From sequence record SRR2962707_5026: a DNA stretch of 45,130 bases; one strand, 5' to 3'. The notes under the pieces are model-generated. The model worked only from the letters and a program-made list of their open reading frames with translations, had not been told where the DNA came from and searched no databases. The translations under genes and the position numbers were made by a program. Below are positions 7,483 through 40,791 of the stretch, in pieces. Numbering within the stretch: the stretch's first letter is position 1; the number at the start of each line of letters is the position of its first letter.

Positions 7483-10152
7483 TTACTCATACCTCAGCGC
7501 TTTCACCGGATTGGTTCTGGCAGTGGCCAGTGTCTTATATCCCACCGCAATAAATGCGATTATCAAAACAAGTATCGCCGCGATCAGGAATACTGGAATT
7601 CCAATGGCCACCCTGCTGGAGAAGTTATCCAGCCAGCCATCCATGATGAAATAGACGATTGGCCAGGATATGATATTCCCAATTAGAATAAGGATCATGA
7701 ATTCTTTGGATAGGATCATTACGATCTGAGATATATCAGCTCCGAGCACCTTGCGTATGCCAATCTCTTTTGTCCTTTGTAAGGCACTGAATGATGTAAG
7801 ACCGAACAATCCAAGACATGCCACAATGATGGCAAATACTGCAAACAGCGTGAATGTCTGGCTGAAATTCTGCTCATTCACATATTGCTTGTTGTAAAAC
7901 TCGTCGAGGAAGAAAGTGTCAAAGGGTGAACCGGGGAAGAATTCATCAAACGAAGTTTTGATCTCATCGTAGGCCTGCTGATAGTCATTTGAATTCAGCC
8001 GGACGGTAATGAATCCGGAAACACTCTCAACAAGTGGAAATACAAGTGGATTAATGCTGTTTTTCAGTGACAATTGCTGGTAATTGTCTACGACTCCAAT
8101 GATAGTTCGTTCATCGTTTCCGACTCTTATTTTCACTCCGATAGCCTCTTCAGGAGACGCTATTTTAAGGGACTCCATAGCAGCATAATTTATGAGAATG
8201 TTGGCTGTGTCGGTTGTTACCTGTGGATCATAATTGCGCCCCGCCAAAATATCAATCTCAAGTGTTGGAAAGTAATCGTGATCAACACCAACCAGGTATG
8301 AAATGAAATTCTTGTCCGGTGTATCCGATACTTTACGCATTCCCCTGGTCCAGAAGATTTCATCTCCCGGTACATTGGAGCTGCCCGTGACACCTGTCAC
8401 CATAGTTCGTGATTCCAGATCATCCATGAACGAAATAAGTCGTGTAGCAAAAGTTGAATCTGCGGAATTCGGACCTCTCATGACGAACGTATCGGTCATT
8501 TCAAATCCAAGATCCAGTTTCTTCATGTGACTTAGTTGCTGATACACAATGATGGTACCGGCGATGAGCGTAACAGAAGCGGCAAATTGGAAAATAACCA
8601 ATCCTCTTCTCAAGAATATACCCGAGTGATTGGTCGTAAGTTTGCCTTTCAACACCTGAATGGGTCTGAAAGAGGAAAGGACGAAGGCCGGATATAGACC
8701 AGAGAGCAATGAGCCGCCTATTAACACACCCGCTACTGCCAGCCAAAAGAGCGGCTGAAGAAAGAAATTTCGGCTGATTGCCGAGTCAACCATCTGACTG
8801 AAAATCGGTGTAAACAAAACAACAATGCCAATGGCGATGGAGAGGGCCAGAAAATTCAGCACAAATGATTCTGTCAAAAATTGATAAACCAATTGTCGCT
8901 TAAAGGCTCCCATGGATTTTCTTACCCCGACTTCCTTAGCTCGTTCAAGTGATTTGGCTGTAGAAAGATTGATGTAGTTGATCCAGGCAATGAGTAAGAT
9001 GAATGCAGAGATCATCCCGAGAAAGAAGACTGTATCGCCATCGCCTTGTTCTTGCGGTTCAGACTCTTGCAGGAGATTGGAATACAAATGAATATCCGTG
9101 ATCGGCTGGAGCGGAAAGTCTGCCCTGTAGTCGTATTTTTCAAAGCTTTCACCTCTTTCTTCATACAGCACATCGGCAAACTTTTCATCAAATGCTTTAG
9201 GATCCGTTCCTTCTTTTAGCAGGACGTAGGTGTTAAAATCATACCAACCCCAGTTAGTTTCTGATGAGGACGAACCATCGTCGTTTCTTGTTTGATTATT
9301 AAGTGTTTCGTACGAAACCAACACATTGTATTTCAAGTGTGAATTGTCCGGAACGTCAGCTGTAATCCCGGAAATTTCATAGTTACCGCTCAGCCAGGCG
9401 TGCATTTCAAGAGATTCTCCTATCACATCGGTTCGGCCAAAATATTTCATGGCCGTGCTCTCTGTAATTACGATCTTGTTTGGCTCAGCTAAGGCCGTTT
9501 CAGGGTCTCCCTGAAGCAGTGGGTAATCAAATATTTTAAGGAAAGAAGGATCAGCTACCTGGACCCTCTTCTCCCGGTACTGAATATTTTCCCTTTCAAA
9601 AATGACCTCCATGGGATAAGCCCTCGCAAAGTCAACTACCTCCGGCATATTCTCTTTCATGAAAGGCCCAACTCGCGGCACAGCAGCTGCACAGTCTATG
9701 TTCAGCTCACCAGACCGGTAGACCATGTATTTGACCCGGTAGATGTCTTTGTGTTTTGAATGGAACTTGTCGTAGCTGTATTCATAGTCCACGTATTGGA
9801 TGATGAAAAGACAGGCTGCCATCCCTAGTGCCAGACCTAAAATATTTAATGCCGAGTAAACTTTGTTCTTCGAAAGTGTCCTGAAAGTTGTTTTGATATA
9901 GTTTTTAAACATAGCTCCTGAGTTTATTTGAGTGACCTTTTTTCTTTTTCTTAAGTTGTAGTTTCTGATGGACAACAAAACATCCTTGAAGTAATGCAAG
10001 CGTGCCCTTGTTAAGCCCTTACTCTCCACACGATCCTGAAACATTTCCTGCAAGTCACCATGCACCTCATCGAGCAGCTCGTTGCTGTAAATGAGGCGAA
10101 GTAGCCTGGTTCCAAGCTTTGGAGGGTTGATATGTTTCTCTCCCTGCTCCAC
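7483..10152 (-). CDS. MacB/FtsX-type duplicated ABC permease with N-terminal prefix domain (copy 1)
   Basis: Prefix PPK...GDLQEMF; MFKNY at aa 81; two RAKEVGVRK/RTKEIGIRKVLGA motifs; C-terminal NPVKALRYE. Confidence 0.93.
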   Translation of the reverse strand: MEQGEKHINPPKLGTRLLRLIYSNELLDEVHGDLQEMFQDRVESKGLTRARLHYFKDVLLSIRNYNLRKRKKVTQINSGAMFKNYIKTTFRTLSKNKVYSALNILGLALGMAACLFIIQYVDYEYSYDKFHSKHKDIYRVKYMVYRSGELNIDCAAAVPRVGPFMKENMPEVVDFARAYPMEVIFERENIQYREKRVQVADPSFLKIFDYPLLQGDPETALAEPNKIVITESTAMKYFGRTDVIGESLEMHAWLSGNYEISGITADVPDNSHLKYNVLVSYETLNNQTRNDDGSSSSETNWGWYDFNTYVLLKEGTDPKAFDEKFADVLYEERGESFEKYDYRADFPLQPITDIHLYSNLLQESEPQEQGDGDTVFFLGMISAFILLIAWINYINLSTAKSLERAKEVGVRKSMGAFKRQLVYQFLTESFVLNFLALSIAIGIVVLFTPIFSQMVDSAISRNFFLQPLFWLAVAGVLIGGSLLSGLYPAFVLSSFRPIQVLKGKLTTNHSGIFLRRGLVIFQFAASVTLIAGTIIVYQQLSHMKKLDLGFEMTDTFVMRGPNSADSTFATRLISFMDDLESRTMVTGVTGSSNVPGDEIFWTRGMRKVSDTPDKNFISYLVGVDHDYFPTLEIDILAGRNYDPQVTTDTANILINYAAMESLKIASPEEAIGVKIRVGNDERTIIGVVDNYQQLSLKNSINPLVFPLVESVSGFITVRLNSNDYQQAYDEIKTSFDEFFPGSPFDTFFLDEFYNKQYVNEQNFSQTFTLFAVFAIIVACLGLFGLTSFSALQRTKEIGIRKVLGADISQIVMILSKEFMILILIGNIISWPIVYFIMDGWLDNFSSRVAIGIPVFLIAAILVLIIAFIAVGYKTLATARTNPVKALRYE

Positions 10153-15588: not shown

Positions 15589-18213
15589 CTACTCGTATTT
15601 CAATGTCTTAGCCGGATCCAGTCTGGCTACTTTCAAGGTTTGATAGCTTACGGTGATGAATGCCAGCACCATCACCACCACTAAAGCAAAGACCAGCGTC
15701 AACCATGGAAAATCAATTCGATAGGCATAGTCGTTTAGCCAGCCATTCATTAAAAAGTAGACTAACGGAAAGCCCAAAACGGCTGATACCCCAATGAGGC
15801 TCAGAAATCCCCGGTAGAAGAGGTAGAGAATCTGCCCCTGGTTTGCACCAAGCACTTTTCGAACGCCGACCTCCTTGGATCGCTGAATCGAAAGGAAAGA
15901 AGCCAGCCCGTATAGCCCAAGAATACCAATGAAGATGGCTAAAATCGAAAAGGTGATAAACACATCGCCAAATCGTCTGTCCTGCTCATACAGCGAATTG
16001 AACCGGTCGTCCAGAAAAACAATGTCCATGGGTATCTCAGGATAAAACTCATCCCATTTCTCAACTAAAAAATCTATCCCTGCCATGTAGTTTTCATCAT
16101 TCAACTCGATGACCAGATTTCTCACTCCCCTCACCGGCCAGTAAACCGTAGGCTCAATTTTCTCTTTCAATGAGGTGCGGTTAAAATCTTTGACGATCCC
16201 TACAATTTTTCTTTTTGTTCCCCAAATATCAAGGATGGCACTGATTGTAGTGGAGTAATCTTCCACGTTGAACCGATCCAAAAATGCTTCATTGACCATG
16301 ATGGCATTGGAGTCTGAAGCCAGCTTTGTATCAAAACTTCGACCGGCCACCATTTCAATATCAACGGCATTCATGAAATCGCTATCATTGAACTGAACAA
16401 ATGTGGTTCCGGATAGGGGCTCGTCCGAAAAACCCATCAACTGAATCTTGTCTGTGGTGGAATTGATATCTGCATTCCCTCCGCCCGGCAAATTGGAAGT
16501 GGCACCCACGGTTTCGATTGCTGCATGGCTTTCCAGCATTCGTTTAAAGCCGTCCAAATTATTCACGTACGCTTCGAATGATTCTCCTGAGTCAGCATTA
16601 CGTTCGGGAACTTCCACACTAATCACCTTATCGATGGAAATACCCAGATCCTGATTTTTCATGTAATTGACCTGCTTGGAAATAATCAGGGTGGATGCAA
16701 TCAGCACCAGGGATCCGGTGAACTGCACTACCACCAGGCCTTTTCGAAGGGAAGTACCACTTTTGGAATTTCTGAACTCTCCCTTGAGCACCGCTACAGG
16801 TCTAAAGCCTGAGAGTACCAGTGCCGGATAGAATCCTGAGATGAAGGCGCCAATGAACCAGAATAGCGACATGGTGATGAGGAGCGTTGGATGATTCCAA
16901 ACATGGATCATGACTTCTTTGCCCACCAGCTGGTTGAAATACGGAAGTAATACCTCCGCTAGAAGCAACGCTGTAATCGCACCGAGTAGGTTGATCAGTA
17001 AGGCTTCAAACAAAAATTGATAAACCAACTGTTTTCGAACGGCTCCAATTACTTTCCTCAAGCCGACTTCCTTGGCCCTGTCGATTGCCCGGGCTGTTGA
17101 CAAATTGGTGTAATTGACCCAGGCAATGATGAGGATCAAAATAGAAATGACGGATAGGAAATCCACCGCCTGCTTGTTGCCCTGCTGTTGAGGTTCGTAG
17201 GTAAAGTCGGATTCCAGATAGATTGATGTGACAGGATGAAGGTCCCAACGGGATTGATTTTCTTCGTCATAATTTTTGATGACCTCTCTCGCCTTCTCAT
17301 TGATTGCCTGCATGTCTGCATTCTTGACGAGCTTTAAATAAACGTAGTGATTGTTGTAATTCCAGGATTTGTAATCACCCTCATCTTTGAAGGTTGGGTC
17401 AGAAATCATCATGTTCACCCGGTAGTGCGTGTTTTCCGGGACATCCTGAATCACACCCGTTACTTTCAGGGAAGCATTATAGGGAGCCACAACCTGAATG
17501 GTTTTACCTATTGGATTCTCATTTCCAAAAAATGCCCTGGCTCTACTTTCTGTGAGTACTACACAGAGCGGTTCGACCAGCATGGATTCTTTTGAGCCTG
17601 CCAGTACATCATAATCGAAGAGCTGAAGAAAGTTGGAGTCAGCCGAAACGACGTATTCATCTTTGATCAACTTGTCCCCGTATTTGAATGTAATCGGATT
17701 CAATTTTTGGGTCACCGTGTGCTGAATTACGTCGGGGAGTTCTTCGTTCAATACTTCTCCTGTCAGGTAAGAAGCCATGGCATCTTTTATGCCATCCAGG
17801 CTGTCAATGACCTCTACCGTACCGATGCGATAGAGTTGATCCGCATCGGAATGAAAGCTATCGTAACTCCGCTCGAACCGAACATATTCGTTGATAAGCA
17901 GAAAGCTGGCCAGTCCTATGGCCAGTCCCAAGACGTTAATGGTCGTAAACATCTTGTGGCGCGACAGATGCCGCACGCTGATTTTGAAATAGTTTTTAAA
18001 CATACCAGTATCCTTTATTATTTGAGTTTTCATTAGTGGTCGTAGGAGTGAAATCCTGAAGAGCAGTATCACATCCATGACATATCGCAGCTGGGCATTC
18101 CTCCCTTCGGCCAAATGATCCTGGTATAGTTCCTCCAAATCACCTTTGATGTCACGGTAATAGTCGGGATGGCAATACCATTTAAATACCTTATCTGCTA
18201 TCTGTTTGATCAT
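15589..18213 (-). CDS. MacB/FtsX-type duplicated ABC permease with prefix domain (copy 2)
   Basis: Prefix KWYCHP...GDLEELY; MFKNY at aa 71; RAKEVGLRK, RSKEVGVRKVLGA; DPAKTLKYE. Confidence 0.93.
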   Translation of the reverse strand: MIKQIADKVFKWYCHPDYYRDIKGDLEELYQDHLAEGRNAQLRYVMDVILLFRISLLRPLMKTQIIKDTGMFKNYFKISVRHLSRHKMFTTINVLGLAIGLASFLLINEYVRFERSYDSFHSDADQLYRIGTVEVIDSLDGIKDAMASYLTGEVLNEELPDVIQHTVTQKLNPITFKYGDKLIKDEYVVSADSNFLQLFDYDVLAGSKESMLVEPLCVVLTESRARAFFGNENPIGKTIQVVAPYNASLKVTGVIQDVPENTHYRVNMMISDPTFKDEGDYKSWNYNNHYVYLKLVKNADMQAINEKAREVIKNYDEENQSRWDLHPVTSIYLESDFTYEPQQQGNKQAVDFLSVISILILIIAWVNYTNLSTARAIDRAKEVGLRKVIGAVRKQLVYQFLFEALLINLLGAITALLLAEVLLPYFNQLVGKEVMIHVWNHPTLLITMSLFWFIGAFISGFYPALVLSGFRPVAVLKGEFRNSKSGTSLRKGLVVVQFTGSLVLIASTLIISKQVNYMKNQDLGISIDKVISVEVPERNADSGESFEAYVNNLDGFKRMLESHAAIETVGATSNLPGGGNADINSTTDKIQLMGFSDEPLSGTTFVQFNDSDFMNAVDIEMVAGRSFDTKLASDSNAIMVNEAFLDRFNVEDYSTTISAILDIWGTKRKIVGIVKDFNRTSLKEKIEPTVYWPVRGVRNLVIELNDENYMAGIDFLVEKWDEFYPEIPMDIVFLDDRFNSLYEQDRRFGDVFITFSILAIFIGILGLYGLASFLSIQRSKEVGVRKVLGANQGQILYLFYRGFLSLIGVSAVLGFPLVYFLMNGWLNDYAYRIDFPWLTLVFALVVVMVLAFITVSYQTLKVARLDPAKTLKYE

Positions 18214-21307: not shown

Positions 21308-22093
21308 TTACCAATGCTTTTGGATCACTTCAAGGAAGGATGGGTGTACCCCTCCACCGGCGACCATCTCCCGCCCAAAAATGAAATCGTCACCGCCTTT
21401 GAAATCGGTCACAGTTCCACCGGCTTCTTTCACAAGAATTACTCCTGCGGCAATATCATATGAATTGAGATTGTATTCGAAAAAACCGCCATACCGACCA
21501 CAGGCCACATAGGCCATGTCTGCTGCGGCACTACCCATTCTGCGCAGGCCCTGGGTGTGTTTCATGAGCTCATTCAGAATTTGAAGGTATTCCTCCAGGC
21601 GATCAAAGTTGTAGTATGGAAAGCCGGTTGCAAGCACACAGTTTCGGATGTCCGGGTCCTTTCGAACGTGTATGGGCGTACCATTCAAAAAAGCCCCATT
21701 GCCCTTGGAGGCATGGAAACACTCGTCGTTGGCTACTTCATACACCACACCTGACACGATTTCTCCCTGGTACATCAGACCAATGCTGACGCAATAGTTG
21801 GGGATGCCGTGCACAAAGTTGGTTGTGCCATCCAGTGGATCAATGATCCAGGTATATTCTTTCCTGCCCTGACTGGTGGTTTCTTCTTCCGTAATGAAGC
21901 CGGCTCCAGGTATGATTTTCTCTAATCCAGAAATGATGGATTTTTCCGACTCTTTATCCACGTAGGAAACCAGGTCGCTCGGGCCTTTCAATTCGACTTT
22001 ATCGTAGGAAAAAGACTTTCTTTCCTTCCGAATAAAAGCTCCGACTTCTTTGGCCAGTACCGCCACTTGACTGGTTATTTCTTCAAAATTCAC
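21308..22093 (-). CDS. suhB: Inositol monophosphatase family
   Basis: WIIDPLDGTTNF, RRMGSAAAD, YDIAAG. Confidence 0.92.
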   Translation of the reverse strand: MNFEEITSQVAVLAKEVGAFIRKERKSFSYDKVELKGPSDLVSYVDKESEKSIISGLEKIIPGAGFITEEETTSQGRKEYTWIIDPLDGTTNFVHGIPNYCVSIGLMYQGEIVSGVVYEVANDECFHASKGNGAFLNGTPIHVRKDPDIRNCVLATGFPYYNFDRLEEYLQILNELMKHTQGLRRMGSAAADMAYVACGRYGGFFEYNLNSYDIAAGVILVKEAGGTVTDFKGGDDFIFGREMVAGGGVHPSFLEVIQKHW

Positions 22094-22773
22094 TTGTTTC
22101 CCTCCAATACGATGACAAATTCTCCTTTTATGGATTTGCTTCCAAAATAAGACAACACCTCCGGGATGCTTCCGGTTATGGTTTCTTCAAATTTCTTTGT
22201 CAGCTCTCTTGAGACAGATACTTTGCGCTCAACCCCCAAGATTTCTTTGAATTGCTCCAGTGTTTTGAGCAATCGGTGGGGTGATTCATACAAAACCACT
22301 GTTCTGGGTTCGTCTTTCAGTGCTTCTATTCTGGTCTGTCGGCCCTTTTTGTGAGGTAGAAATCCCTCATAGACAAACCGTTCACATGGAAAGCCGGATT
22401 TGATGAGGGCGGGTACAAAAGCTGTCGCTCCGGGAAGCGAATCGACCTCAATGTCATTTTCTAAAGCCGCCCGAACCAGCAAAAAACCCGGATCAGAAAT
22501 CCCAGGTGTGCCAGCATCAGAGATCTGTGCGATGTTGGTTCCTGATTGTAGTTTTTCAATTACCTCATTTACTTTCTTGTGCTCATTGTGTGCGTGAAAG
22601 CTCTGGGCAGGAGTGTTGATCTGGTAATGCTTGAGTAAAAAGCCTGACGTGCGTGTGTCCTCTGCCAGAATCAGATCTACTTCGTTCAGCATCTGAACAG
22701 CACGATAGGTCATGTCCGCAAGGTTGCCGATGGGCGTAGGGACAAGGTAGAGTTTGCCTGGTTGGGAGGTCAT
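22090..22773 (-). CDS. rsmI: 16S rRNA C1402 2'-O-methyltransferase
   Basis: LYLVPTPIGNL, AEDTR, SDAGTPGISDPG, YESPHR, RELTKKFEE. Confidence 0.97.
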   Translation of the reverse strand: MTSQPGKLYLVPTPIGNLADMTYRAVQMLNEVDLILAEDTRTSGFLLKHYQINTPAQSFHAHNEHKKVNEVIEKLQSGTNIAQISDAGTPGISDPGFLLVRAALENDIEVDSLPGATAFVPALIKSGFPCERFVYEGFLPHKKGRQTRIEALKDEPRTVVLYESPHRLLKTLEQFKEILGVERKVSVSRELTKKFEETITGSIPEVLSYFGSKSIKGEFVIVLEGNK

Positions 22774-27042: not shown

Positions 27043-27858
27043 CTACTGTTTCCTGATTATAATATCCCCGTTCATGTTTTTGAAGGTGTATTCCGGACCT
27101 CCGCCGTTGATGTCACCAAACACCCAGGCATTGAGGGAGATTTTATATTCGCCATCGTCTGACTTCACCTGTGGTTTGGAACGATCCACAGTCATATCAA
27201 AGTCAGTGAAGATCTCACCTCGGTCAGATTTCATTTTGGCCCTGGCTTTGATGCTGGCGGGGAAAGTCACGTCAACATTTCCATTAAGGGTAACGAATGA
27301 CATGGGCTCATTGGCCGTCACTTGTTTGAAGTTGACGATGATCGCGCCATTCACCGTATTAGAAACCACCGATCCGGATATGTCTTTCAAGGTGATGGGG
27401 CCGTTCACAGCGGATACCTCGTGTGTTCCATTCACACCAGTTATTTCCACTTTACCGTGAACCGTTGACACTTCCAGATCGAAGTTGGCAGGCACCTTGA
27501 TGAAAAGATCGATTGCTTTCTTCCACGAATTCGTTTCGATCCCTACCACATTGTTGTTTTCAGATGCCTCCAACTCCACAGGGCTTGAAGCGATTCTTTT
27601 CATCCCCTCCGGAGCTTTTCTGTCGCTATCATGATCATGATCGCAATCGTCGCAATCTGATTCGCTTCCGGACTTGGCCTGGATGATCACTTCTTTTCCG
27701 TTGTAAACTTCCACTACGATGTTTCCTCGTACCTGGCCCACTTCCAGCTTTCCTTTCTTATCGGGATTGCTGAGGGGTACTGCTATTTGCTCGTTGAATT
27801 CCTGCGACCAGGCCATTGCCGTGGCTGTCAGGAAGAATATGGTTAATAACTTTTTCAT
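27043..27858 (-). CDS. DUF4097 (beta-solenoid, Toastrack-type) secreted protein
   Basis: Signal peptide; repeats STVHGKV, SAVNGPI, NTVNGAI, VTLNGNV, KNMNGDI. Confidence 0.88.
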   Translation of the reverse strand: MKKLLTIFFLTATAMAWSQEFNEQIAVPLSNPDKKGKLEVGQVRGNIVVEVYNGKEVIIQAKSGSESDCDDCDHDHDSDRKAPEGMKRIASSPVELEASENNNVVGIETNSWKKAIDLFIKVPANFDLEVSTVHGKVEITGVNGTHEVSAVNGPITLKDISGSVVSNTVNGAIIVNFKQVTANEPMSFVTLNGNVDVTFPASIKARAKMKSDRGEIFTDFDMTVDRSKPQVKSDDGEYKISLNAWVFGDINGGGPEYTFKNMNGDIIIRKQ

Positions 27859-27889
27859 TGTTTCTATCTATTTATGCGCAAGGCGCGTT

Positions 27890-28717
27890 TTATTCTGATT
27901 TTCTTAAATACACATTTCCGTTGATGCTTCTGAAATTCAATTCAGGGCCTCCTGAACCGATTTCCACACCGGTTTTTGTTCCAATTTTGAATCTTCCATG
28001 CTCATCGCTCTTCTCCACCTTGGGGCTCATGCGTTTGTAATCAAAAGATGAATACATGTCGCCATTCATCGAATCGAAAAACACCTGTGCACTGAAGTTT
28101 TTGGGCAGCTCGAAGTTGAAGTCCCCATTGACCGTGTTGAAATCGATGGATTCAGTGGGGGTTTCCAGAAAGTTGATGGTCACATCCCCATTCACTGTTG
28201 AGGCCTGCAGGACTTTTCTAGCATTTTTGATCTCTACCGAGCCGTTTACGTTGCAGGCTTTCACCGACCCGTCAATGTTTTTTACAAAGACATCTCCTTT
28301 GTTGACGGTCTTGGCTTCCAGGGTAACATTCTTGGGAACCTTCACTTTGTATTGGAATTTGAAATCGTATTTAGGGCCATTTTTGATGTTGTATCCCCAC
28401 CCGTTATTCCAATTGCATCGCTTGATGAAAGGAGCTTTGGTATAAAATATCAACGAGTCGTTGGAAGACTTTTCGCCCAGCTCCAGTTCTTTCTTGGCTT
28501 TTGCCATCTGCTCGTCTGATTTGGCATTAATTACGATCTCCACAGAAAGGTAGACTTTGTTGTCGCTGGATGGCTCCACGATCACATCTCCGTGAAGATT
28601 ATCTATCACCACAACAGTCTCTCCCGGGTTGGCCAGATCGTACGTTTTATTGATCACCACCTTGTCCTCCTGGAGGCTGGGGTTGATCATGGTTATTAAT
28701 ATGATTAATAAATTCAT
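27890..28717 (-). CDS. DUF4097 (beta-solenoid) protein
   Basis: Repeats CNVNGSV, STVNGDV, NTVNGDF, DSMNGDM, RSINGNV. Confidence 0.88.
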   Translation of the reverse strand: MNLLIILITMINPSLQEDKVVINKTYDLANPGETVVVIDNLHGDVIVEPSSDNKVYLSVEIVINAKSDEQMAKAKKELELGEKSSNDSLIFYTKAPFIKRCNWNNGWGYNIKNGPKYDFKFQYKVKVPKNVTLEAKTVNKGDVFVKNIDGSVKACNVNGSVEIKNARKVLQASTVNGDVTINFLETPTESIDFNTVNGDFNFELPKNFSAQVFFDSMNGDMYSSFDYKRMSPKVEKSDEHGRFKIGTKTGVEIGSGGPELNFRSINGNVYLRKSE

Positions 28718-28736
28718 TGTCCTTTGGTTTTGAGTT

Positions 28737-29525
28737 TTATGACTGTCGCAAGCTTTTGATGCTTTGCTCCAGTTTGTCTTTGACTAATTCATCGTTTGTA
28801 TTTTCCTTCAGCTTTTCCATGGTTTCAACTGAAGATTTTTCCTGAATCTGCACAAGTACATCGGCTATTGCCACGAGCATAAGTGGGGAGTCCTGCATTT
28901 GCAAGGCATCCACTAGCGATTGTCGCACCTCCGGCTGATCCACATACCGCACCAATGATTCCAGTGATGCCAGACGCACATTCACATTTTCATCGTTGTT
29001 GAGCGTGGTGACCAGCGCATTGATGACACGTTGATCTGCCCTGGGCAATTCGGCAGCCAGGTTCACCGCACGGATCCGTTCTTGCGCTTTGGGCTGTTCA
29101 ATGAGCGTGAGCATCATCATCTCTTTCATGCTCTGTATTTCATTGCTCAGCTGACGAATATCCTCTTGCTGATTTTGTGATGGAAGCATCCACCAGCCAA
29201 CGAACAAGCCCATGGCCAGTGATGCAAGTCCCACCTGCCAGCTGCGTGTCATGCGCTCCACGATCCAGTCCAATACATTCGGCACAGGTGTTTTCTGCTT
29301 CTCCATGTATGCTGCCATCATGCCTTCAAAGCGTGCATCCATTTGCACGGATGGTTCCGGTCGCTCTATCTCATCGAAGAGCTCCCAGGTTTGCTCCATC
29401 TCCTTGAGCTCAGAAGCCACATCCGGATTCGCCTGAAGAAATTCATTGAGGACTTTTTCATTTTCCTCTGAGATTTCCCCGGCTATCTTTTCCTGCCATA
29501 ATTCTATGATTCTATCTTTTTGCAT
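28737..29525 (-). CDS. Transmembrane anti-sigma factor with C-terminal HEAT repeats
   Basis: N-terminal ASD-like helices, TM (VGLASLAMGLFVGWW), ERIRAV, DENVNVRLASLESL; directly after the ECF gene. Confidence 0.82.
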   Translation of the reverse strand: MQKDRIIELWQEKIAGEISEENEKVLNEFLQANPDVASELKEMEQTWELFDEIERPEPSVQMDARFEGMMAAYMEKQKTPVPNVLDWIVERMTRSWQVGLASLAMGLFVGWWMLPSQNQQEDIRQLSNEIQSMKEMMMLTLIEQPKAQERIRAVNLAAELPRADQRVINALVTTLNNDENVNVRLASLESLVRYVDQPEVRQSLVDALQMQDSPLMLVAIADVLVQIQEKSSVETMEKLKENTNDELVKDKLEQSIKSLRQS

Positions 29526-29561
29526 GGCTTTATCTTTTCTTATTTATTCCGGCAATGCCGG

Positions 29562-30113
29562 TCATACATCCAGTTTTAAATAGGATTCCCGTAATTCTTT
29601 TAATATCCGGTGCACCCGCACTTTGATAGCACTCTCCGTGACACCCATCATCTCGGCTACCTTAGCGTACTTCACTTTTTGAAACCTCACCAGCTCGATC
29701 AATTCACGCTTCTCATCTGTCAGACTCTCGAGTGCCCGTTTCAAATAATTGAGTTCGTCGGATCGTTCCATATCGGCTTCCCGGTTTTCAGTTTCACTAA
29801 GTGTCTGTTCGTAGGGATCCATTGTCTCCTGAAAAGCGTATCGCTTGTTCTTTCGGTAATGATCTTTATGAACATTTCTCGCCATTTGAAAAGCCCACAC
29901 TTCGAAATCTCCTGTTTCCTTGTAGGTATGCTTGTATTTGAGGATGCGGACGAAGACATTCTGTACCAGGTCTTCACTGGTTGCTCCGTCTTTGGTCATT
30001 CCATAGAAGAATCCAAAGAAGCGACGGCTGTATCGCTTGTAGAGCAAGTTGAGTTTCTCAACGTCCCCATCTTTCACTTTTAGCATCAGGTTGTGATCTT
30101 CGAGTTGGTTCAT
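29562..30113 (-). CDS. ECF RNA polymerase sigma factor
   Basis: Region 2 (LYKRY, EDLVQNVF, WAFQMARN) and region 4 (YAKVAEMMGVTESAIKVRVHR). Confidence 0.96.
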   Translation of the reverse strand: MNQLEDHNLMLKVKDGDVEKLNLLYKRYSRRFFGFFYGMTKDGATSEDLVQNVFVRILKYKHTYKETGDFEVWAFQMARNVHKDHYRKNKRYAFQETMDPYEQTLSETENREADMERSDELNYLKRALESLTDEKRELIELVRFQKVKYAKVAEMMGVTESAIKVRVHRILKELRESYLKLDV

Positions 30114-33699: not shown

Positions 33700-36300
33700 T
33701 TATTCCACCCTGGTTATTTCTATTGGATTAAGATTTGTCACTTTCAAGGACTGAATACCGATCAAGATAAGAATGATCAAAAGTGTTACGCCAAGGTTGA
33801 TAGGCAGAAGCATATACGGTGTGCCAATTCGATAAGCAAAACCGGAAAGCCATTCATCCATCATCCAAACACTTACCCCGCCGGCAATCAGGTTGGCAAT
33901 AAGCACGATGAAAATAAACTCTGTCGAAAGGATTTGGATGATCTGCATTCGGGTAGCACCAAAAATCTTTCTGAGTCCGATCTCACGATAACGTCTCAAA
34001 ATATTGAAAGTGGAAAGACCCAAAATCCCAATGACGGCAATGACCATCGCGATGATCATAGCAAAAGACGAGAGACGACTGACCACACGTTCTTCATTGT
34101 ATGCCTTTTGATACTCATCATCCAGTATTTGATACTTCATATCAAAGAATGGTTCCAATGCAGCATATTCTTTCTCAATCAATTCTATGGACTCAATCGG
34201 GTTGTTTTGATCGTACCGAATGTAAAACGTGCCAGAGTTTTGCGGTTTTACTTCATACAATATGATGGGCATAGGATCATTGTGCAATGATTCCGTGTTG
34301 AAATCCGGAACCACTCCGGCGATTTTGCATGGATTATCCCAAACAGTAATTGTTGTACCTACAGGATTTTCAAGGTTCATTCGTTTGACCGCCGACTCTG
34401 TCAAAATCACCTGATCAGTTGTGTCCACCGGATTGAATCCCCCTCCTTGTAAGAAGTCCATCTCAAAGACTTCCATCAGGCCATTGTCCCCACCAATCAT
34501 CCGGAAGAAGATCTGATCTTCAGTATTTTTCCCACTCCAGGACACCCCATCTGTTGAATAAGTCGCATTGATCATGTTGGCATTGCTGATGCCAATGGCT
34601 TTGATTTGATGATACTGGGTGAGGTTTGTTTTGAAATTATCAAATCCTTTGATGTGTCGATAGGTGGGCTCCAGCATCATTATGCCCTTTCGGTCATAGC
34701 CCAGGCTTTCCTCCTGCAAATACGAAAGCTGTAGGTAGAATACACTCGTCAGAATGACAATGATCCCTGAAATACTGACTTGCGCAATGGTCAGCCATTT
34801 CCTTGCTGATCCTTTACCAGATCCTTTGAAGGGCAGGTTTTTCAGTATCTGCACCGGATTGAACCTGCTCATAAGCAGTGCAGGATAGAATCCAGATAAA
34901 AGAGTTGTCAACATGATGACCAAGGCTATTTGCATGATCATTGTGGCTGAAATAGTAAATGTGATCTCCTCGCTGATGACATCATTTAGCATTGGAAGAA
35001 TTAAGTACGCCAGAAGAAGTGCCAAGCCTGCTGAAAACAGCACTTTCAGCAATGTTTCGAAGAGAAATTGAAGCTGGAGGGTGAATTGACTTGCCCCATT
35101 GACTTTTCTTACGCCTATTTCTTTGCCCCGAATAGATGCCTGTGCCGTAGTTAGATTGATGAAATTGACAATGGACATCACCAAAATGAACAGTGCAAAA
35201 AGCGCAATGATGCGTAAATAGTCTGCCAGGCCGCCGGCTACTTTTCCATTTTCAAATTGCGTGTATAAATGCTCGTCACTCATTGGATGAAGCAAGTGGG
35301 AGAGGTTTTCACGCTTCTCCATGATGTCCAGCTCATTGATCTTTTGCTGAACAATGGATGGATCATCATCTAGTTGGACATACGTGATGAACGAATATTC
35401 CTTAATGTTTTCCGTCTTCACCCCCCAGAGGGTGTAGACCAACTCAAGTGGTGCTATGAACTCGAATTGCAGGGAGGAAGTTGTGGGAACATCTTTGTAC
35501 ACTGCTGAGATTGTCACTTCGAAATAGTTGTCTACCAGGTAGGTTTTGCCCACAGGATTCTCATCTCCATATAGCTTTTTTGCTATCGATTCAGATAGTG
35601 CAATGCTGTTGGGATCTTTCAAAGGATTGGAAGAACCCGCAATGATCTCAAAGTCAAACACCTTAAAAAAGCTGGTACCTGAATAAATCCCCCTGCTGTA
35701 AATACACTCCTTGTTCTTGTCGATCTTGAAGCATTGCTCGGATGGCCACCGCCAATTGGAAATGATTCTGGTCACTGTGCCAATCTCTGGAATTTGATCC
35801 ATGGCTTCCTCCATCACCTCATATACAATGCCATCCTGTGTCTGGATTACCCCATCACTACCGGCACTGTTGGTCATCACCTTGTAGATGGTACCAATGT
35901 TGGTGTGGAAGCGGTCGAAACTTGAGTGATGATTGACCCAAAGCATGGTGAGAAAAACAACACAAAATCCGATGCATAGGCCAACGATGTTGGTGAGGTT
36001 TTGAGATGGGTGACGTCTGAATTGTCTGAAAAAGGTTTTTAAAACGTTCTTGAACATGGCTGCATGGTTTGAAGTGTATCTGTTTTTTTTGATGGCGAAG
36101 GGCCGTAAGAAGTTGAAGACATTTAGCCAGTAGTTAAGCTTCGCGATAATTGGCTTTTTGTTGGCACTGTCTATGAGAAATTGCTCATAGAGATCCCCTC
36201 TGATTGGTTCTACCCACTCATCTCGGCAAAACCAATCCAGAAATCGGTCGGCTAGTTTTGGTGGACTAATCCTTGATTCGGATTTATTCTCCCTGGCCAT
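33700..36300 (-). CDS. MacB/FtsX-type duplicated ABC permease with prefix domain (copy 3)
   Basis: Prefix PPKLADRFLDWFC...GDLYEQF; MFKNV at aa 82; RGKEIGVRK, RYREIGLRKIFGA. Confidence 0.92.
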   Translation of the reverse strand: MARENKSESRISPPKLADRFLDWFCRDEWVEPIRGDLYEQFLIDSANKKPIIAKLNYWLNVFNFLRPFAIKKNRYTSNHAAMFKNVLKTFFRQFRRHPSQNLTNIVGLCIGFCVVFLTMLWVNHHSSFDRFHTNIGTIYKVMTNSAGSDGVIQTQDGIVYEVMEEAMDQIPEIGTVTRIISNWRWPSEQCFKIDKNKECIYSRGIYSGTSFFKVFDFEIIAGSSNPLKDPNSIALSESIAKKLYGDENPVGKTYLVDNYFEVTISAVYKDVPTTSSLQFEFIAPLELVYTLWGVKTENIKEYSFITYVQLDDDPSIVQQKINELDIMEKRENLSHLLHPMSDEHLYTQFENGKVAGGLADYLRIIALFALFILVMSIVNFINLTTAQASIRGKEIGVRKVNGASQFTLQLQFLFETLLKVLFSAGLALLLAYLILPMLNDVISEEITFTISATMIMQIALVIMLTTLLSGFYPALLMSRFNPVQILKNLPFKGSGKGSARKWLTIAQVSISGIIVILTSVFYLQLSYLQEESLGYDRKGIMMLEPTYRHIKGFDNFKTNLTQYHQIKAIGISNANMINATYSTDGVSWSGKNTEDQIFFRMIGGDNGLMEVFEMDFLQGGGFNPVDTTDQVILTESAVKRMNLENPVGTTITVWDNPCKIAGVVPDFNTESLHNDPMPIILYEVKPQNSGTFYIRYDQNNPIESIELIEKEYAALEPFFDMKYQILDDEYQKAYNEERVVSRLSSFAMIIAMVIAVIGILGLSTFNILRRYREIGLRKIFGATRMQIIQILSTEFIFIVLIANLIAGGVSVWMMDEWLSGFAYRIGTPYMLLPINLGVTLLIILILIGIQSLKVTNLNPIEITRVE

Positions 36301-36634
36301 AGGAAAGATTTTTTAGTGCCAATTCGGGAATCTGATCCCACAGGCTATTACGCAATGATCGATTGAGCTCCATGGCACGCTTACCTTCTGCCGTAATCTC
36401 ATAAAGTTTCTTGCGCCTTCCACCACGCTCGTTGGTAGCGTCATCCAATTTGGATTGAAGGAACCCCTTTTCTTCCAGACGGCTCAAGGCAGAATGCACT
36501 GCTCCGATGGCCGCAGATCGTTTGGTTTGCTCTTTGATGGCATGCTTAACCGCCAGACCGTAGGCATCCGGATAAAGTACCCCTACCACCAGTAAAATGA
36601 GTTCTTCAAATTCGCCAAGATGTGTCCCTTTCAT
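36284..36634 (-). CDS. PadR-family transcriptional regulator (copy 3)
   Basis: LGEFEELILL, AYGLAVK, RGGRRKKLY; 17-bp overlap with the permease. Confidence 0.92.
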   Translation of the reverse strand: MKGTHLGEFEELILLVVGVLYPDAYGLAVKHAIKEQTKRSAAIGAVHSALSRLEEKGFLQSKLDDATNERGGRRKKLYEITAEGKRAMELNRSLRNSLWDQIPELALKNLSYGQGE

Positions 36635-36702: not shown

Positions 36703-37659
36703 TTAAGTATTTAGCGTAAGAAAGAAGTCTTCTATTCTCCTCAAATACCACATCACGCCATCTTGCTTCTTCGTGAAGCCGGTGTGCCCACCGAACCTTG
36801 GCGTTTCCAGGTATACGTTCGGACTGCTTTCACATAGCTGGTATGGAAAGCATTGCGGGGAAAGCATGGGATCGTTTTTCGCATTTACAATCAATAAGGG
36901 CACCCGTACATTGGGTAAATATTGATGGCTTGACCACTTCTGATAATAGTTGTCCATGGAATCATATCCGTGTAGCGGCAACACATACTTTTCATGGATA
37001 TCTTGAAGGGAATCGATTTCATCCAACTCGCTTAAGTCAAATAGCTCAGGATACTGATCCGCTTTACTCGTGATTTTTCGTTTCCACTTTTCGAGAAAAC
37101 TCTTTTCCAGTCGTTTATTGAATCCTCTGGACAGCTTTTCTGTGGATGCTTTCAGATTCATGGGTGCCGAAAATGCCATTCCTCCTTTTACTTTTTCCGA
37201 AGTGTAATTGCCCAGATAATTGATTACCATGGTGCCTCCCATTGAAAATCCCAGAAGAAGGATGGTCGTGTACTTTTCCTCCACATATCGAATCACTTCA
37301 TCCAAATCAGCTATATCCCCGTGTTCGTAAAATCGAGGCAGGCGATTCATATCTCTGCTGCAACTTCTGTAGTGCCAAACCAGAATATCATATCCTTTAT
37401 CATACAAAAAAGCCGCGGATTTCTCAATGAAATGATCCTTTGCATTCCCTTCAAATCCATGAGAAATCAGCACCAATATGTTTCCTCCTGATTTTTTCCA
37501 ATCCAGATCCAGAAAGTCGCCATCTGCCAATTCCAATCGCTCACGTTCGTATTTTACCTGGTTCACTTTGGTAGTGAAATAAGGCACCAGGGTTTCCAGG
37601 TAGGAATTAAAGTAGAAAAGCGGTCGCTTGGTGTAGCCGGATTCTTTTATAATTGGCAT
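36703..37659 (-). CDS. YheT-family alpha/beta hydrolase
   Basis: RERLELADGDFLDLDW, HGFEG, GFSMGG, NAKNDP, GGHTGF. Confidence 0.92.
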   Translation of the reverse strand: MPIIKESGYTKRPLFYFNSYLETLVPYFTTKVNQVKYERERLELADGDFLDLDWKKSGGNILVLISHGFEGNAKDHFIEKSAAFLYDKGYDILVWHYRSCSRDMNRLPRFYEHGDIADLDEVIRYVEEKYTTILLLGFSMGGTMVINYLGNYTSEKVKGGMAFSAPMNLKASTEKLSRGFNKRLEKSFLEKWKRKITSKADQYPELFDLSELDEIDSLQDIHEKYVLPLHGYDSMDNYYQKWSSHQYLPNVRVPLLIVNAKNDPMLSPQCFPYQLCESSPNVYLETPRFGGHTGFTKKQDGVMWYLRRIEDFFLTLNT

Positions 37660-37692: not shown

Positions 37693-38526
37693 ATGTTTCA
37701 AAATACCCTGAAAATCATAAAGGCACTGCTTTATACCATCCGGCCCTCTGCCACGCTGGGTGCTTGTCTGCTGGTATTGGCCGCCTTCAATCCTTCGGGC
37801 ACAACATCCAACACCACAGCAGCATTGTTTATCTGCTCGTTCTTCGGGGGGGCATTTTGCTTTTTGATCAACGATATCTATGATCGTGAAAAAGATTTAC
37901 TGAACGACAAAAAGAGACCCATCGCAACAGGTGTTATTCCGCTAAAAACAGCTATCAGGACCGCTGCTTGGTTTGCGCTCATCTTCATTGTTGCGGCTTA
38001 CTTCCTCGGAATCGTTCCATTCATTCTTTCCTTCGTGTTTCTGGGAATTACTTACGGTTATTCATTCATCAATGCCAAATCAGGCTTGCTGGCCAATGTG
38101 ATCGTTGCGTTCATCGTTTCCGGTACACAGTGGGGGGTGATGATCATTAAGCCGGACGAATTGCTCATTTGGAGTTCGCTGTTTCTGTTCTTTTTTACCA
38201 TCCCACGAGAGCTCCTACTCGACTGGCTGGATCAGAAAGGAGATAGAGCTATTGGGAAAAAATCGTCTCCTTTAAAAAACTCGGTAAAGATGAACGTGAT
38301 TCTTGTGATCGTGCTGTTGCTGATTTCGACTTACTTTCTGGTGAGTATTTTCTTCCAAACACCGATCGATTCTTTATCTGCTTTTCTTTTTGCTTTCGCC
38401 ATTATTTCTATCTGGGGCTCCTTCATTCCATTTCTGCTCAAGCCCGATCATTTCAACGCCCTGCTTTCGGTTCGGCTTTCACATAGTACGTTTGCGTTGT
38501 TCATTCTGGCAATGCTGCTGCGATAG
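37693..38526 (+). CDS. UbiA-family prenyltransferase (DGGGP-synthase-like motifs)
   Basis: INDIYDREKD..KRPIATG and RELLLDWLDQKGD Asp-rich motifs; multiple TM helices. Confidence 0.9.
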   Translation: MFQNTLKIIKALLYTIRPSATLGACLLVLAAFNPSGTTSNTTAALFICSFFGGAFCFLINDIYDREKDLLNDKKRPIATGVIPLKTAIRTAAWFALIFIVAAYFLGIVPFILSFVFLGITYGYSFINAKSGLLANVIVAFIVSGTQWGVMIIKPDELLIWSSLFLFFFTIPRELLLDWLDQKGDRAIGKKSSPLKNSVKMNVILVIVLLLISTYFLVSIFFQTPIDSLSAFLFAFAIISIWGSFIPFLLKPDHFNALLSVRLSHSTFALFILAMLLR

Positions 38527-39663
38527 ATGAAGAAACTCCGATACATACGACCATTCGTTTATGGAATGTTGCTCTGCTGGTCATTTGCTGGCGTTGGACA
38601 GCTTACAACAGACAAGGTGATCCGTCGCATTCATGCCTTGCAGGTGACCGAAGATGCATTCTATGATCCGGGGCTTTTTCCAAGCCAGCGATCATGGAGC
38701 TTTTCAAGGGATTGGGTGGAAGACAACACGATTTTCTTCACAGCTTCTATTGTCACAACGTTGCGACAGCTTCCCGAAACAGACAATCAGGAACTAATCA
38801 ATCAGATCATTGATCGAGCAACTCCTGTTTACACCAAGTACAGCAGTCGAAACAGGGAAGCAACCTACAACTTCTGGCAAACAGTGGAGCCGGATTTACC
38901 CTTCCCAAACGGAGGGCGGCTGATCTCTAATCCGAAAATGCGCCTTCCGGACGATTATGATACTTCCTGCCTGATCGCCCAGGCAACAGCCAGCGACAGT
39001 CTGGATGCATGCCTTCGTGAAAAAATGGTGGCTTATGCGGAAAGAGAGGAGCGAAGCGAAAACGAGCCCACCACATTGAAGGCTTATAAAACTTCTCAAG
39101 CTTACGAAGTTTGGTTTGCCAAAAAAATGCCTCAGACCTTCGACATCTGTGTGATGTCCAATCTGATGTATTTCATTTTTGATCGGGGTTTCGGGCTGAA
39201 TCAGACGGATAGCGCGACCATCCAATTGATCAAAGACATGATCTTGAATGATGATCATTTCAATGAGACAAAATTCATCTCACACCATGCGGCCTCTCCT
39301 GCTTTGATCCTGTACCATGTAGCTCGTATGATGAGCAAAGATTCTAATGGCCTCTTCAGCGATATAAAAGAGAAAGTCGCTGGCGATCTGATTCAGCTGT
39401 TGGAAGAGCCTGAAAGCGAGATGGAGAAGGTTTTGATCCTTACCTCACTGATCCGTATGGGTGAAACACCAAATATCAGACCTGATTATGAGGTGCTGGA
39501 GGCAGATCTGAAAACGTTCGTTTTCTTCTCTGTAAAACCATTTGGTAGTGGCTTCAGCTCGCTGAAAATGGATGGTATCTCCCCTTCCATTGACTGGTAT
39601 TCGGAAGCGTACAATTGGACGCTGGTGTATGAATACTTGATTTTGGCAAACGAGGTGAAGTGA
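38527..39663 (+). CDS. Secreted helical protein resembling a class II terpene cyclase beta domain
   Basis: Signal peptide; TYNFW, LPDDYDTS, FDICVMSNLMY, SPALILYHVAR; ATG immediately follows the UbiA stop. Confidence 0.55.
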   Translation: MKKLRYIRPFVYGMLLCWSFAGVGQLTTDKVIRRIHALQVTEDAFYDPGLFPSQRSWSFSRDWVEDNTIFFTASIVTTLRQLPETDNQELINQIIDRATPVYTKYSSRNREATYNFWQTVEPDLPFPNGGRLISNPKMRLPDDYDTSCLIAQATASDSLDACLREKMVAYAEREERSENEPTTLKAYKTSQAYEVWFAKKMPQTFDICVMSNLMYFIFDRGFGLNQTDSATIQLIKDMILNDDHFNETKFISHHAASPALILYHVARMMSKDSNGLFSDIKEKVAGDLIQLLEEPESEMEKVLILTSLIRMGETPNIRPDYEVLEADLKTFVFFSVKPFGSGFSSLKMDGISPSIDWYSEAYNWTLVYEYLILANEVK

Positions 39664-39717
39664 CAGCCGCAATCAAGCATTGGGCATGAAACTTGTTTTA
39701 TGAGGTTAAAACATGTC

Positions 39718-40791
39718 ATGAAGCTTAACCTAACAACCCTCCTTTTTCTTGCGATATCCATCTGTATGGCACAAAATGAAGAGCCTTCTCCTGAGATGTT
39801 TACCGGATATTACTATGTAGGTACTCATCCAAAAAAGCCCTTTTTCCTAAGCCGGTGGTATACTCGAGAAGATCAATTGTTCATCATTTTTGATTCAGAC
39901 ATTGATCGTCCATTGCAACCGAACAATGTAGGCAAGGATATTCCTGATATTTTCTACAATGAAGAAGAAGTACCACCTAATTATCCTGATTCCATTCCCT
40001 ATTTCATCTTTACACTTAAGGATAACAAGCTCGAAAAGTTCAAACTAAGGAGGAACCGGAAGGAATGGAGCACCGACCTCTATGGGCAAAGAATTCACAA
40101 ATGGGATGCGCTGGCAGTAGATACCGAAGCGCTCTTGACGGATTCGGTAGTTTCAGCACATTTTACGATCCGGGCAAGTGAAACGGACATCACGCAGGCA
40201 AGGAGCTTCTCTAACAATCTGGAAGCGCGATATCTTGAATTGACTGAATTATTTGGGATTGAAATGGATCCAACAACCGTTTATATCTATCCCGATCTCG
40301 ATACCTATCACAATGCGGTCCTTAGCCCACAGGCCCCAGCATGGCAAATGGGGCGTGCCTGGACTGAGAATGAAATCCGGATGGTATCGCCAGAAGTTGC
40401 CATTAAAGATCAGCCATTTTCAGATGAGTTGGTCGTGCATGAATTTATTCACTGCATTCACCTGACGATGATTGAGTCAACCAAAAATCTGAAACCATGG
40501 CTGTGGGAAGGAGTAGCCATGTATAAAGGATGTTGTGCCTTTGCGCATCCGTCCACACTCGATTACCTGCAAAAAGGGAAATACCCTTCTTTGAAGAAAA
40601 TTGAATCCAATGCCGAAATGAAATATGAGCTTGGGTATTACCTTGTCGAATTCATAGATCAGAAATGGGGCTGGTCCAAAGTTTTAGAGCTGATCAACTC
40701 GAATGCAGATTTGGAGCAGAGTCTTGGAATAAGCTCAAAAGAATTTGAAACAGCATTTTATCAGCATCTCGAAGCAGAATACCTGAAATAA
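39718..40791 (+). CDS. Secreted gluzincin (peptidase MA-like) metallopeptidase
   Basis: HEFIH plus PWLWEGVAMY third ligand; signal peptide from ATG 39718. Confidence 0.8.
   Translation: MKLNLTTLLFLAISICMAQNEEPSPEMFTGYYYVGTHPKKPFFLSRWYTREDQLFIIFDSDIDRPLQPNNVGKDIPDIFYNEEEVPPNYPDSIPYFIFTLKDNKLEKFKLRRNRKEWSTDLYGQRIHKWDALAVDTEALLTDSVVSAHFTIRASETDITQARSFSNNLEARYLELTELFGIEMDPTTVYIYPDLDTYHNAVLSPQAPAWQMGRAWTENEIRMVSPEVAIKDQPFSDELVVHEFIHCIHLTMIESTKNLKPWLWEGVAMYKGCCAFAHPSTLDYLQKGKYPSLKKIESNAEMKYELGYYLVEFIDQKWGWSKVLELINSNADLEQSLGISSKEFETAFYQHLEAEYLK

Follow-up and report, generated by a model that had tools for sequence, protein, structure and literature searches.

A UbiA prenyltransferase gene abutting a gene for a predicted exported class II terpene-cyclase-like protein in an Ekhidna-like member of the Cytophagales

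We describe a pair of adjoining genes in a 45,130-nucleotide stretch of DNA (sequence record SRR2962707_5026; the whole stretch is termed the window) that encode a UbiA-superfamily prenyltransferase and a protein resembling the beta domain of class II terpene cyclases. In the reading that we favour, with modest confidence, the two genes form a coupled module in which the UbiA enzyme makes a prenyl lipid and the cyclase, exported from the cytoplasm, cyclises it. The pair probably builds an undescribed ring-bearing membrane lipid. The host of the module is an Ekhidna-like marine member of the Cytophagales, and statements made below at the level of genomes rest on relatives of the window's source rather than on its own genome. 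The proposal grew out of a reading of the window made from its letters only (the sequence-only reading), which had noticed the UbiA gene, the abutting open reading frame (ORF) and several cyclase-like motifs.

Layout of the gene pair

Two adjoining plus-strand ORFs were confirmed, namely the UbiA gene at 37693-38526 (277 aa) and a 378-aa ORF at 38527-39663. The UbiA gene ends in TAG (38524-38526), the ATG of the cyclase-like gene begins at 38527, and the latter gene ends in TGA (39661-39663). The coordinates and translations agree with the direct TAG-to-ATG succession and with all motifs that the sequence-only reading had quoted. The features on which the argument depends are as follows.

36703..37659, minus strand: YheT-like alpha/beta hydrolase, 318 aa, lacking a signal peptide (Pfam Abhydrolase_1/Hydrolase_4)
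37693..38526, plus strand: UbiA-superfamily prenyltransferase, 277 aa, nine transmembrane (TM) helices (PF01040 at E 3e-23; AlphaFold2 (AF2) model)
37870..37896, plus strand: first Asp-rich motif of UbiA, NDIYDREKD, residues 60-68, end of TM2 (read from the sequence)
38221..38244, plus strand: second Asp-rich motif of UbiA, DWLDQKGD, residues 177-184, end of TM6 (read from the sequence)
38524..38529, plus strand: TAGATG junction, the UbiA stop codon abutting the cyclase start codon, an arrangement of translational coupling (read from the sequence)
38527..39663, plus strand: beta-monodomain class II terpene-cyclase-like protein, 378 aa, predicted to be exported (AF2 fold and profile matches)
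38527..38601, plus strand: predicted signal peptide of the Sec type, residues 1-25 (the sequence shows a basic n-region and a hydrophobic core)
38944..38967, plus strand: LPDDYDTS, residues 140-147, proposed protonation motif D143-x-D145-T-S (HMMER alignment to the drimenol synthase AsDMS)
39142..39162, plus strand: DICVMSN, residues 206-212, inner-helix segment that is conserved and also present in AsDMS (D382...N388; profile alignment)
39283..39327, plus strand: HHAASPALILYHVAR, residues 253-267, with H254/A255 at AsDMS Y426/Y427 and with Y263, H264 and R267 nearly invariant (alignment)

In the translated proteins, YNFW occupies residues 114-117 and SPALILYHVAR residues 257-267 of the cyclase, and RELLLDWLDQKGD corresponds to UbiA residues 172-184. 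A promoter and terminator scan returned scores no better than those of shuffled sequence. In metatranscriptome library X1, parts of both genes are covered by six short contigs that are 90-99% alike; none spans the UbiA-cyclase junction and DNA carry-over is possible, so that these contigs do not show transcription.

The 378-residue protein resembles a class II cyclase beta domain

No Pfam or NCBIfam family matches the 378-residue protein even at E 1, and no HAD family is among the matches, in keeping with the sequence-only reading that a HAD domain is absent. An AF2 model built from a 49-sequence alignment (pLDDT 90.4, pTM 0.90) was compared with known structures by Foldseek. Ten chains of AsDMS and drimenol synthase stood at the top (E 5e-9 to 7e-8), followed by a second tier that comprised monodomain proteins similar to squalene-hopene cyclase (SHC), a Streptomyces drimenyl diphosphate synthase and MstE (E about 1e-4 to 1e-3; MstE 6e-4). 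GH76, GH88 and similar barrels ranked below the cyclases. When VIA-align was used, the terpene-cyclase beta (TC-beta) domain of AsDMS superimposed with Z 29.6, 285 residues being fitted (model 24-375 on chain 228-526) at a root-mean-square deviation of 2.5 A. SHC and MstE reached Z 23 (MstE 23.0), other class II cyclases Z 20-23, and cellobiose epimerases, glycosidases and other non-cyclase barrels Z 18 or lower.

Profile searches of the Protein Data Bank (PDB) point the same way. The single cyclase sequence retrieved nothing useful, and a first family profile matched AsDMS at E 0.011 across the C-terminal half only. Profile A2, made from the N-terminal half alone, gave only chance matches (for example cembrene A synthase at E 0.087). 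The broader profile A4, which takes in a distant subfamily described below, reached AsDMS with E 4.6e-7 and fungal AstC with E 0.0057. Neither the sequence nor the profile searches of the PDB matched the cyclase to MstE. As modelled, the 378-residue protein is by fold an (alpha/alpha)6 class II terpene-cyclase beta domain of the AstC/DMS type, with the cyclase domain starting at about residue 26, directly after the signal peptide. The resemblance to class II beta domains claimed earlier is thus upheld in that AsDMS is the best fold match and glycosidase-type barrels score lower.

The likeness to the AsDMS TC-beta domain (Aquimarina spongiae, PDB 9M7D/9MHS) and to fungal AstC consists of the best fold match, a significant profile match and an aligned P-D-D-x-D-T-[TS] motif; in addition, the AsDMS anchors D382/N388/R439 align with D206/N212/R267 of the window protein. 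The two proteins differ in that the window cyclase lacks the HAD phosphatase domain, carries a signal peptide, is only about 15% identical and has a UbiA enzyme rather than a phosphatase as its partner.

A large and unnamed family surrounds this protein. HMMER searches of 1.84 billion representatives yielded 356 clusters (50% identity) at E 0.001 or better, 126 of them at E 1e-30 or better. All named members are labelled hypothetical, and all named sources are Bacteroidota. Among 401 sampled Bacteroidota genomes, 14 contain a strong match and five contain the distant subfamily; a weak match in a further genome (G348) is a histidine kinase and was rejected. In the Atlas, the cyclase falls among unnamed Bacteroidota clusters, an SQHop_cyclase/AstC-like_C cluster appears only at rank 29, and PF28380 (AstC-like_C) is the name given to one distant cluster. 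A search of the literature in a limited library turned up neither an account of this cyclase family nor one of a UbiA enzyme that has an exported class II cyclase as its partner.

Members of the distant subfamily (L045:2865-3968 on the minus strand, L046:2437-3525, L047:2391-3485, L043:2479-3555 and L044) adjoin ribonucleotide reductase genes. They are about 365 aa long, match the family profile at E 1e-13 to 1e-17 and carry the motif D-P-D-A-D-[CD]-T, which keeps D-x-D-[CD]-T. Four of the five genomes with this subfamily also encode, on other contigs, a UbiA paralogue that scores about 100 bits to the window's subfamily, a co-occurrence that may reflect shared taxonomy.

The UbiA gene encodes a prenyltransferase with both Asp-rich motifs intact

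The partner protein is a member of the UbiA prenyltransferase superfamily in which both Asp-rich motifs are intact. It scores 82.8 bits against PF01040 (cut-off 34.2), and its AF2 model (pLDDT 95.8) shows nine long helices, of which helices 2 and 6 each carry an Asp-rich motif at their end. Within 37 members of its subfamily, N60, D61, D64, K67 and D68 of the first motif and D177, D180, G183 and D184 of the second are invariant. This subfamily is discrete: 67 proteins match at E 1e-10 or better, all are at least 35% identical to the window protein, and the named sources are Ekhidna and Cyclobacteriaceae only.

The sequence-only reading had described the second motif of this protein as similar to that of digeranylgeranylglyceryl phosphate (DGGGP) synthase and had allowed for a glycerol-ether lipid substrate. 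In fold, the kinship stands. The structure nearest to the model is M. jannaschii DGGGP synthase 6m31 (full length, E 2.3e-10, TM 0.77), followed by the full-length folds of AfUbiA and ApUbiA (4tq3, 4od5). Entry 6M31 is also the nearest solved relative by sequence (E 4.9e-8), and its first Asp-rich motif has a similar form. The difference is that the window protein falls far under the NCBIfam DGGGP synthase cut-offs (PRK12882, 53.3 bits versus 296; PRK12883, 52.4 versus 353); it reaches no NCBIfam equivalog cut-off at all, the best matches being PRK12884 and these two synthases. PcrB, the geranylgeranylglyceryl phosphate (GGGP) synthase (PF01884), was not found in G001-G003, three relatives that carry the module, which would argue against GGGP as the UbiA acceptor. 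It is present in G004 and G005, two Flavobacteriales without a UbiA orthologue. The glycerol-ether option is weakened by these results.

Linkage of UbiA and cyclase in one clade

We surveyed the gene neighbourhoods of 42 cyclase loci from species-representative genomes. A UbiA orthologue lies directly upstream of the cyclase in eight of them (L001-L006, L039 and L041), and the ORF coordinates of six of these eight show the two genes overlapping by 4 nt or standing 2-9 nt apart. Whole-genome searches detected a UbiA orthologue (38-58% identical) in nine of the 42 cyclase-bearing genomes, these being the same eight and G003, so that the cyclase is beside UbiA in eight of the nine genomes that have the orthologue. 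In a phylogenetic tree, all 11 placeable cyclases from genomes with a UbiA orthologue form one clade with the window protein (support 0.968); the partial cyclase of L039 was too short and was left out. Furthermore, at least 27 of the 67 UbiA-subfamily clusters share their longest-contig size with a cyclase match.

A natural fusion was also found. The 623-aa protein P0098 (JGI, on two contigs) joins a UbiA domain (residues 5-271, 43% identical to that of the window) to a cyclase domain (residues 281-617). A 13-aa linker follows the last helix and no signal-peptide core is present, features that simple read-through of adjacent genes does not explain. A predicted complex of UbiA with the mature cyclase (score 0.00, mark 0.34) is evidence neither way.

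The linkage is real and is limited to one cyclase clade, that of the window. The coupling to UbiA put forward in the sequence-only reading holds for this clade, with its synteny and its fusion, and does not extend to the family as a whole, where homologues are mostly not beside UbiA (8/42 loci). Together, the natural fusion and the one-clade synteny support functional coupling of the two proteins.

Predicted export of the cyclase

The N-terminus of the cyclase, MKKLRYIRPFVYGMLLCWSFAGVGQ, has basic residues followed by a hydrophobic core and thus the shape of a signal peptide, which makes a signal peptide likely, as had been proposed. Cleavage is probable before a Gln of the Q25 or Q26 type (...AGVG|Q). 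When a hydropathy rule of our own was applied to 283 family members, signal-peptide-like N-termini were called in 121 and nine were unclear. A stricter threshold left 118 calls, 89 of which have a small residue and then Gln at the junction. Such junctions fit the Q-rule of Bacteroidetes (PMC5837995, PMC10653852).

Independent information on the side of the membrane comes from the fusion protein. With nine UbiA helices and cytoplasmic Asp-rich loops, the C-terminus of UbiA would face outward, which would place the cyclase domain of P0098 outside. In the structures of ApUbiA and AfUbiA, the active site and both Asp-rich loops are on the cytoplasmic side. Signal peptide and fusion behind TM9, neither of them an experiment, agree in suggesting that the cyclase works outside the cytoplasm.

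A remodelled active site

Alignment of the cyclase with AsDMS at the motif level was obtained only with the broader profile A4. In this alignment the family pattern L-P-D-D-x-D-[DT]-T lies on AsDMS F328-P-D330-D331-L-D333-T-T, so that D143 corresponds to D331 and D145 to D333 (published AsDMS numbering is chain index + 10, checked on Y373, R378, R380, R425, Y426 and Y427). The PDDxDTT resemblance noted earlier is therefore recovered by the family profile. The exchanges D333N, D331A, D331N and Y427F each abolish AsDMS activity (PMC12365925; PMC9128629).

Conservation was counted over the same 283 family members. Asp occupies position 143 in 282, position 145 in 274 and position 206 in 278. N212 is Asn in all 283, Y263 is kept in 280, H264 in 277 and R267 in 278, and the aromatic residues F116, W117, F126, Y193, Y263 and F334 are likewise conserved. 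Position 146 is more variable (Asp 205, Thr 44), as is position 147 (Thr 228, Ser 48), and the commonest patterns at 143, 145, 146 and 147 are DDDT (186), DDTS (26) and DDTT (13). Judged by this conservation, the quoted motifs are not chance resemblances.

Two types of cyclase make up the UbiA-linked clade. Type B, with PDDxDDT, retains the Tyr that corresponds to AsDMS Y427; it is found among Cyclobacteriaceae, and the second of the tandem copies in L002 and L007 is also of this type. The derived type A, to which the window cyclase belongs, has PDDxDT[ST] and His-His. Across the family, Tyr fills the Y427 column in 242 of the 283 members; 38 of the 41 without it have His one residue earlier. 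The column holds Ala, Ser or Thr in the Ekhidna-type subclade to which the window protein belongs. Tandem cyclase paralogues are encoded at L002:5004-6167 and 6109-7320 and at L007:4995-6143 and 6140-7297; each pair consists of one Ekhidna-type copy (DxDT[ST], His-His) and one ancestral-type copy (DxDDT, Tyr), and in L002 both are downstream of UbiA. This arrangement suggests a duplication as the origin of the window's type.

In AsDMS the diphosphate is held by Y373, R378 and R380, and the Y373A and R378A variants are nearly dead (PMC12365925). These three residues align with W196 (W/F in the family), M201 (Met in 253/283) and T204 (Glu/Asp in 224/283). Because these residues are replaced, binding of a free prenyl diphosphate in the manner of AsDMS is unlikely. 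This bears on a reversed order of steps, in which the cyclase would make a cyclic prenyl diphosphate (drimenyl, copalyl) from farnesyl diphosphate (FPP) or geranylgeranyl diphosphate (GGPP) and UbiA would then transfer the cyclic group. The closest characterised relatives, AsDMS and the Sorangium mono-beta cyclase, do cyclise FPP (PMC9128629; 10.1101/2025.09.20.677545). However, the Tyr/Arg set is lost to W/F, Met and acidic residues or Thr, and both the signal peptide and the attachment of the fused domain after TM9 would locate the cyclase across the membrane from the site at which prenyl diphosphates are produced. We give the reversed order very little chance.

Proposed pathway and its competitors

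In the two-gene pathway that we favour, UbiA, working at the cytoplasmic face, would use a prenyl diphosphate to prenylate an acceptor, leaving a prenyl lipid embedded in the membrane. The Sec-exported, single-beta-domain cyclase would approach the prenyl tail from the inner membrane's outer leaflet, and D145, backed by D143, would protonate the terminal double bond of that tail to give a cyclised lipid of the meroterpenoid type. The analysis shows the structure of the genes, the folds, the alignment of the catalytic motif, the synteny across the clade, one natural fusion and the nine helices of UbiA; the enzyme activity, the substrate and acceptor, the order of steps and the extracytoplasmic location are all points that we infer.

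Several observations weigh against this pathway. Neither acceptor-pathway nor prenyl-diphosphate synthase genes lie beside the pair, and a Pfam scan of 31 window ORFs and of six around the pair revealed no aromatic-acceptor genes; nothing else related to terpenoids is nearby, IspF being 17 kb away. A Pfam scan of 119 neighbour ORFs in the other 34 cyclase loci found no UbiA, and 33 of the 42 cyclase-bearing genomes are without a UbiA orthologue. In the even sample of 401 Bacteroidota genomes, the centre genome alone scores as having the orthologue (396 bits), all others staying at or below 104 bits. In G003, UbiA and the hydrolase gene are on one contig and two tandem cyclase genes are on another. 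P0098 is the sole fusion among 287 family proteins fetched, in a search that covered forms of up to about 700 aa, and a search of metagenome contigs for its DNA gave no match. The prediction of export depends on our own hydropathy rule, under which about half of the family (153/283) has no signal peptide.

A number of these points favour an alternative in which the substrate of the cyclase is a general isoprenoid of the membrane (such as a polyprenol, a carotenoid or the side chain of menaquinone) and the neighbouring UbiA is not required, adjacency reflecting a looser link or inherited synteny in one clade. Most loci (34/42) and genomes (33/42) carry the cyclase family without a UbiA of the window's type, and the genes outside the UbiA clade usually sit among housekeeping genes (M42 peptidase/FKBP, SIR2/ribonucleotide reductase, type IX secretion system (T9SS) plug/SBF). 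The existence of both exported and cytoplasmic forms fits a lipid that can be reached from either leaflet, and in G003 the two genes are unlinked. Against this stand the natural UbiA-cyclase fusion, the abutting codons in the window and the overlapping or near-abutting ORFs of six related loci, and the confinement of UbiA orthologues to genomes of one cyclase clade. The remodelled active site of that clade is, moreover, what a change of substrate would be expected to leave. We consider the alternative unlikely, while recognizing it as the leading competitor of the two-gene pathway.

Outside the UbiA clade, a single isoprenoid-related neighbour was observed. On a Rhodothermales contig, L040:3673-4926 (minus strand) encodes a flavoprotein of the geranylgeranyl-reductase family (FAD_binding_3, GGR_cat) on the opposite strand, just upstream of a partial cyclase homologue.

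The active site itself supplies two further points against the two-gene pathway. AsDMS is inactivated by Y427F, yet the window protein has A255 at this position, preceded by H254. AsDMS is also inactivated by D333N, and the corresponding D145 is replaced by Asn, Glu, His or Ala in nine of the 283 members, eight of which belong to UbiA-linked clades. Such losses would be understandable if the cyclase fold of this clade no longer cyclised and the protein served instead as an exported prenyl-lipid binding or carrier protein, or catalysed another acid-base reaction. Exported proteins annotated as terpene cyclase/mutase with no known cyclase role, including a Tat-signal candidate in Streptomyces, have been reported (PMC10924467). 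However, D143 and D145 are kept almost throughout the family (282/283 and 274/283), the window protein included, and the aromatic residues are conserved with them. His254 stands in for the acid-pairing Tyr consistently (38/41), and in squalene-hopene cyclase it is a His that partners the catalytic acid. We regard a loss of cyclisation as improbable. The remodelling fits a change of substrate and also leaves room for lost canonical activity.

Neighbouring genes

The YheT-like hydrolase gene and UbiA are transcribed divergently, their starts being 33 bp apart. The hydrolase scores 166.7 bits against NCBIfam PRK10985 ('hydrolase'), under the cut-off of 267. An orthologue of the hydrolase gene is beside the UbiA orthologue in all eight linked loci, in L050 and in G003; the L004 copy has been relocated to a site immediately downstream of the cyclase. 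The hydrolase-UbiA pairing is kept in every relative with UbiA, even where the cyclase lies elsewhere, and the hydrolase may belong to the module.

On the other side of the pair, 36 bp 3' of the cyclase, 39700-40791 (plus strand) encodes an exported Peptidase_MA_2-like protein whose signal peptide ends in ...CMA-Q. This gene is kept in none of the 42 related loci and, since it is not conserved, we exclude it from the module. Canonical SHC or oxidosqualene cyclase (OSC) genes (PF13243 above cut-off) were not found in five related genomes.

Farther away on the minus strand are three genes for MacB/FtsX-type permeases of 866-889 aa (7483-10152, 15589-18213 and 33700-36300). A PadR regulator gene (36284-36634) precedes the last of these, the two ORFs overlapping by 17 nt, and this pair separates a gene for an FAD-oxidase/Fe-S protein from the hydrolase gene; those two are direct neighbours in several related loci. 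At 27043-30113 (minus strand), genes for an extracytoplasmic function (ECF) sigma factor, a HEAT-repeat protein and two DUF4097 'toastrack' proteins form a cluster that looks like an operon of the envelope-stress type. A TP_methylase and inositol-monophosphatase gene pair is located at 21308-22773 (minus strand), about 16 kb from the cyclase, and recurs at L007:3456-4918, directly upstream of the cyclases. The shift of this pair points to local rearrangement around the module.

Relation to known systems and implications

In the merosterol system, a prenyl arene made by UbiA is cyclised by the monodomain enzyme MstE (PMC12414744; PDB titles). The pathway (Scytonema; MstE PDB 6SBB-6SBG) shares with the window a single beta-domain cyclase of the same fold and a UbiA partner. 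It differs in that MstE is structurally more distant from the window cyclase than AsDMS is, that the window has no genes for an aromatic-acid acceptor, and that the cyclase is predicted to be exported or, in one relative, is fused to UbiA. A second comparison, made by description, is with the Sorangium cellulosum mono-beta cyclase (WP_129572421), a stand-alone beta domain of the DMS type with DxDVT at 134-138, nearly the residue numbers of the window's own motif. That enzyme keeps the diphosphate-binding Tyr/Arg residues and cyclises free FPP (10.1101/2025.09.20.677545), and the available part of its description mentions no signal peptide or UbiA partner, unlike the case of the window cyclase.

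The theme of UbiA together with a monodomain cyclase is thus known. What is new here is the predicted export, the dedicated UbiA subfamily with its fusion, the lost diphosphate site and how large the unnamed family is. Demonstrations that monodomain class II cyclases function are recent and concern MstE and the beta-domain cyclase of Sorangium. To our knowledge, class II terpene cyclases are cytoplasmic or inner-face enzymes. A bolder version of the favoured pathway, which we hold only tentatively, is that the module contains the first class II terpene cyclase to act outside the cytoplasm. The DGGGP-synthase-like UbiA enzyme would prenylate a lipid on the inner face of the membrane, the product would flip, and the exported or UbiA-fused cyclase would cyclise the tail in the outer leaflet to give a polycyclic envelope lipid. 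The acceptor might then be a lyso-glycerolipid released by the neighbouring alpha/beta hydrolase.

If a cyclised prenyl lipid is made outside the cytoplasm, it would define a new compartment for terpene cyclisation and a new class of lipid or meroterpenoid, and would offer diphosphate-independent cyclases for biocatalysis. Within the large unannotated family, one clade is predicted to have become exported, has a remodelled acid site and is locked to its own UbiA subfamily, once by fusion. Under the bolder version, marine Cytophagales would gain a new class of polycyclic envelope lipid, and the wider Bacteroidota family would be a reservoir of monodomain cyclases that do not depend on a diphosphate; bacterial drimenol synthases could likely have drawn their cyclase domain from it.

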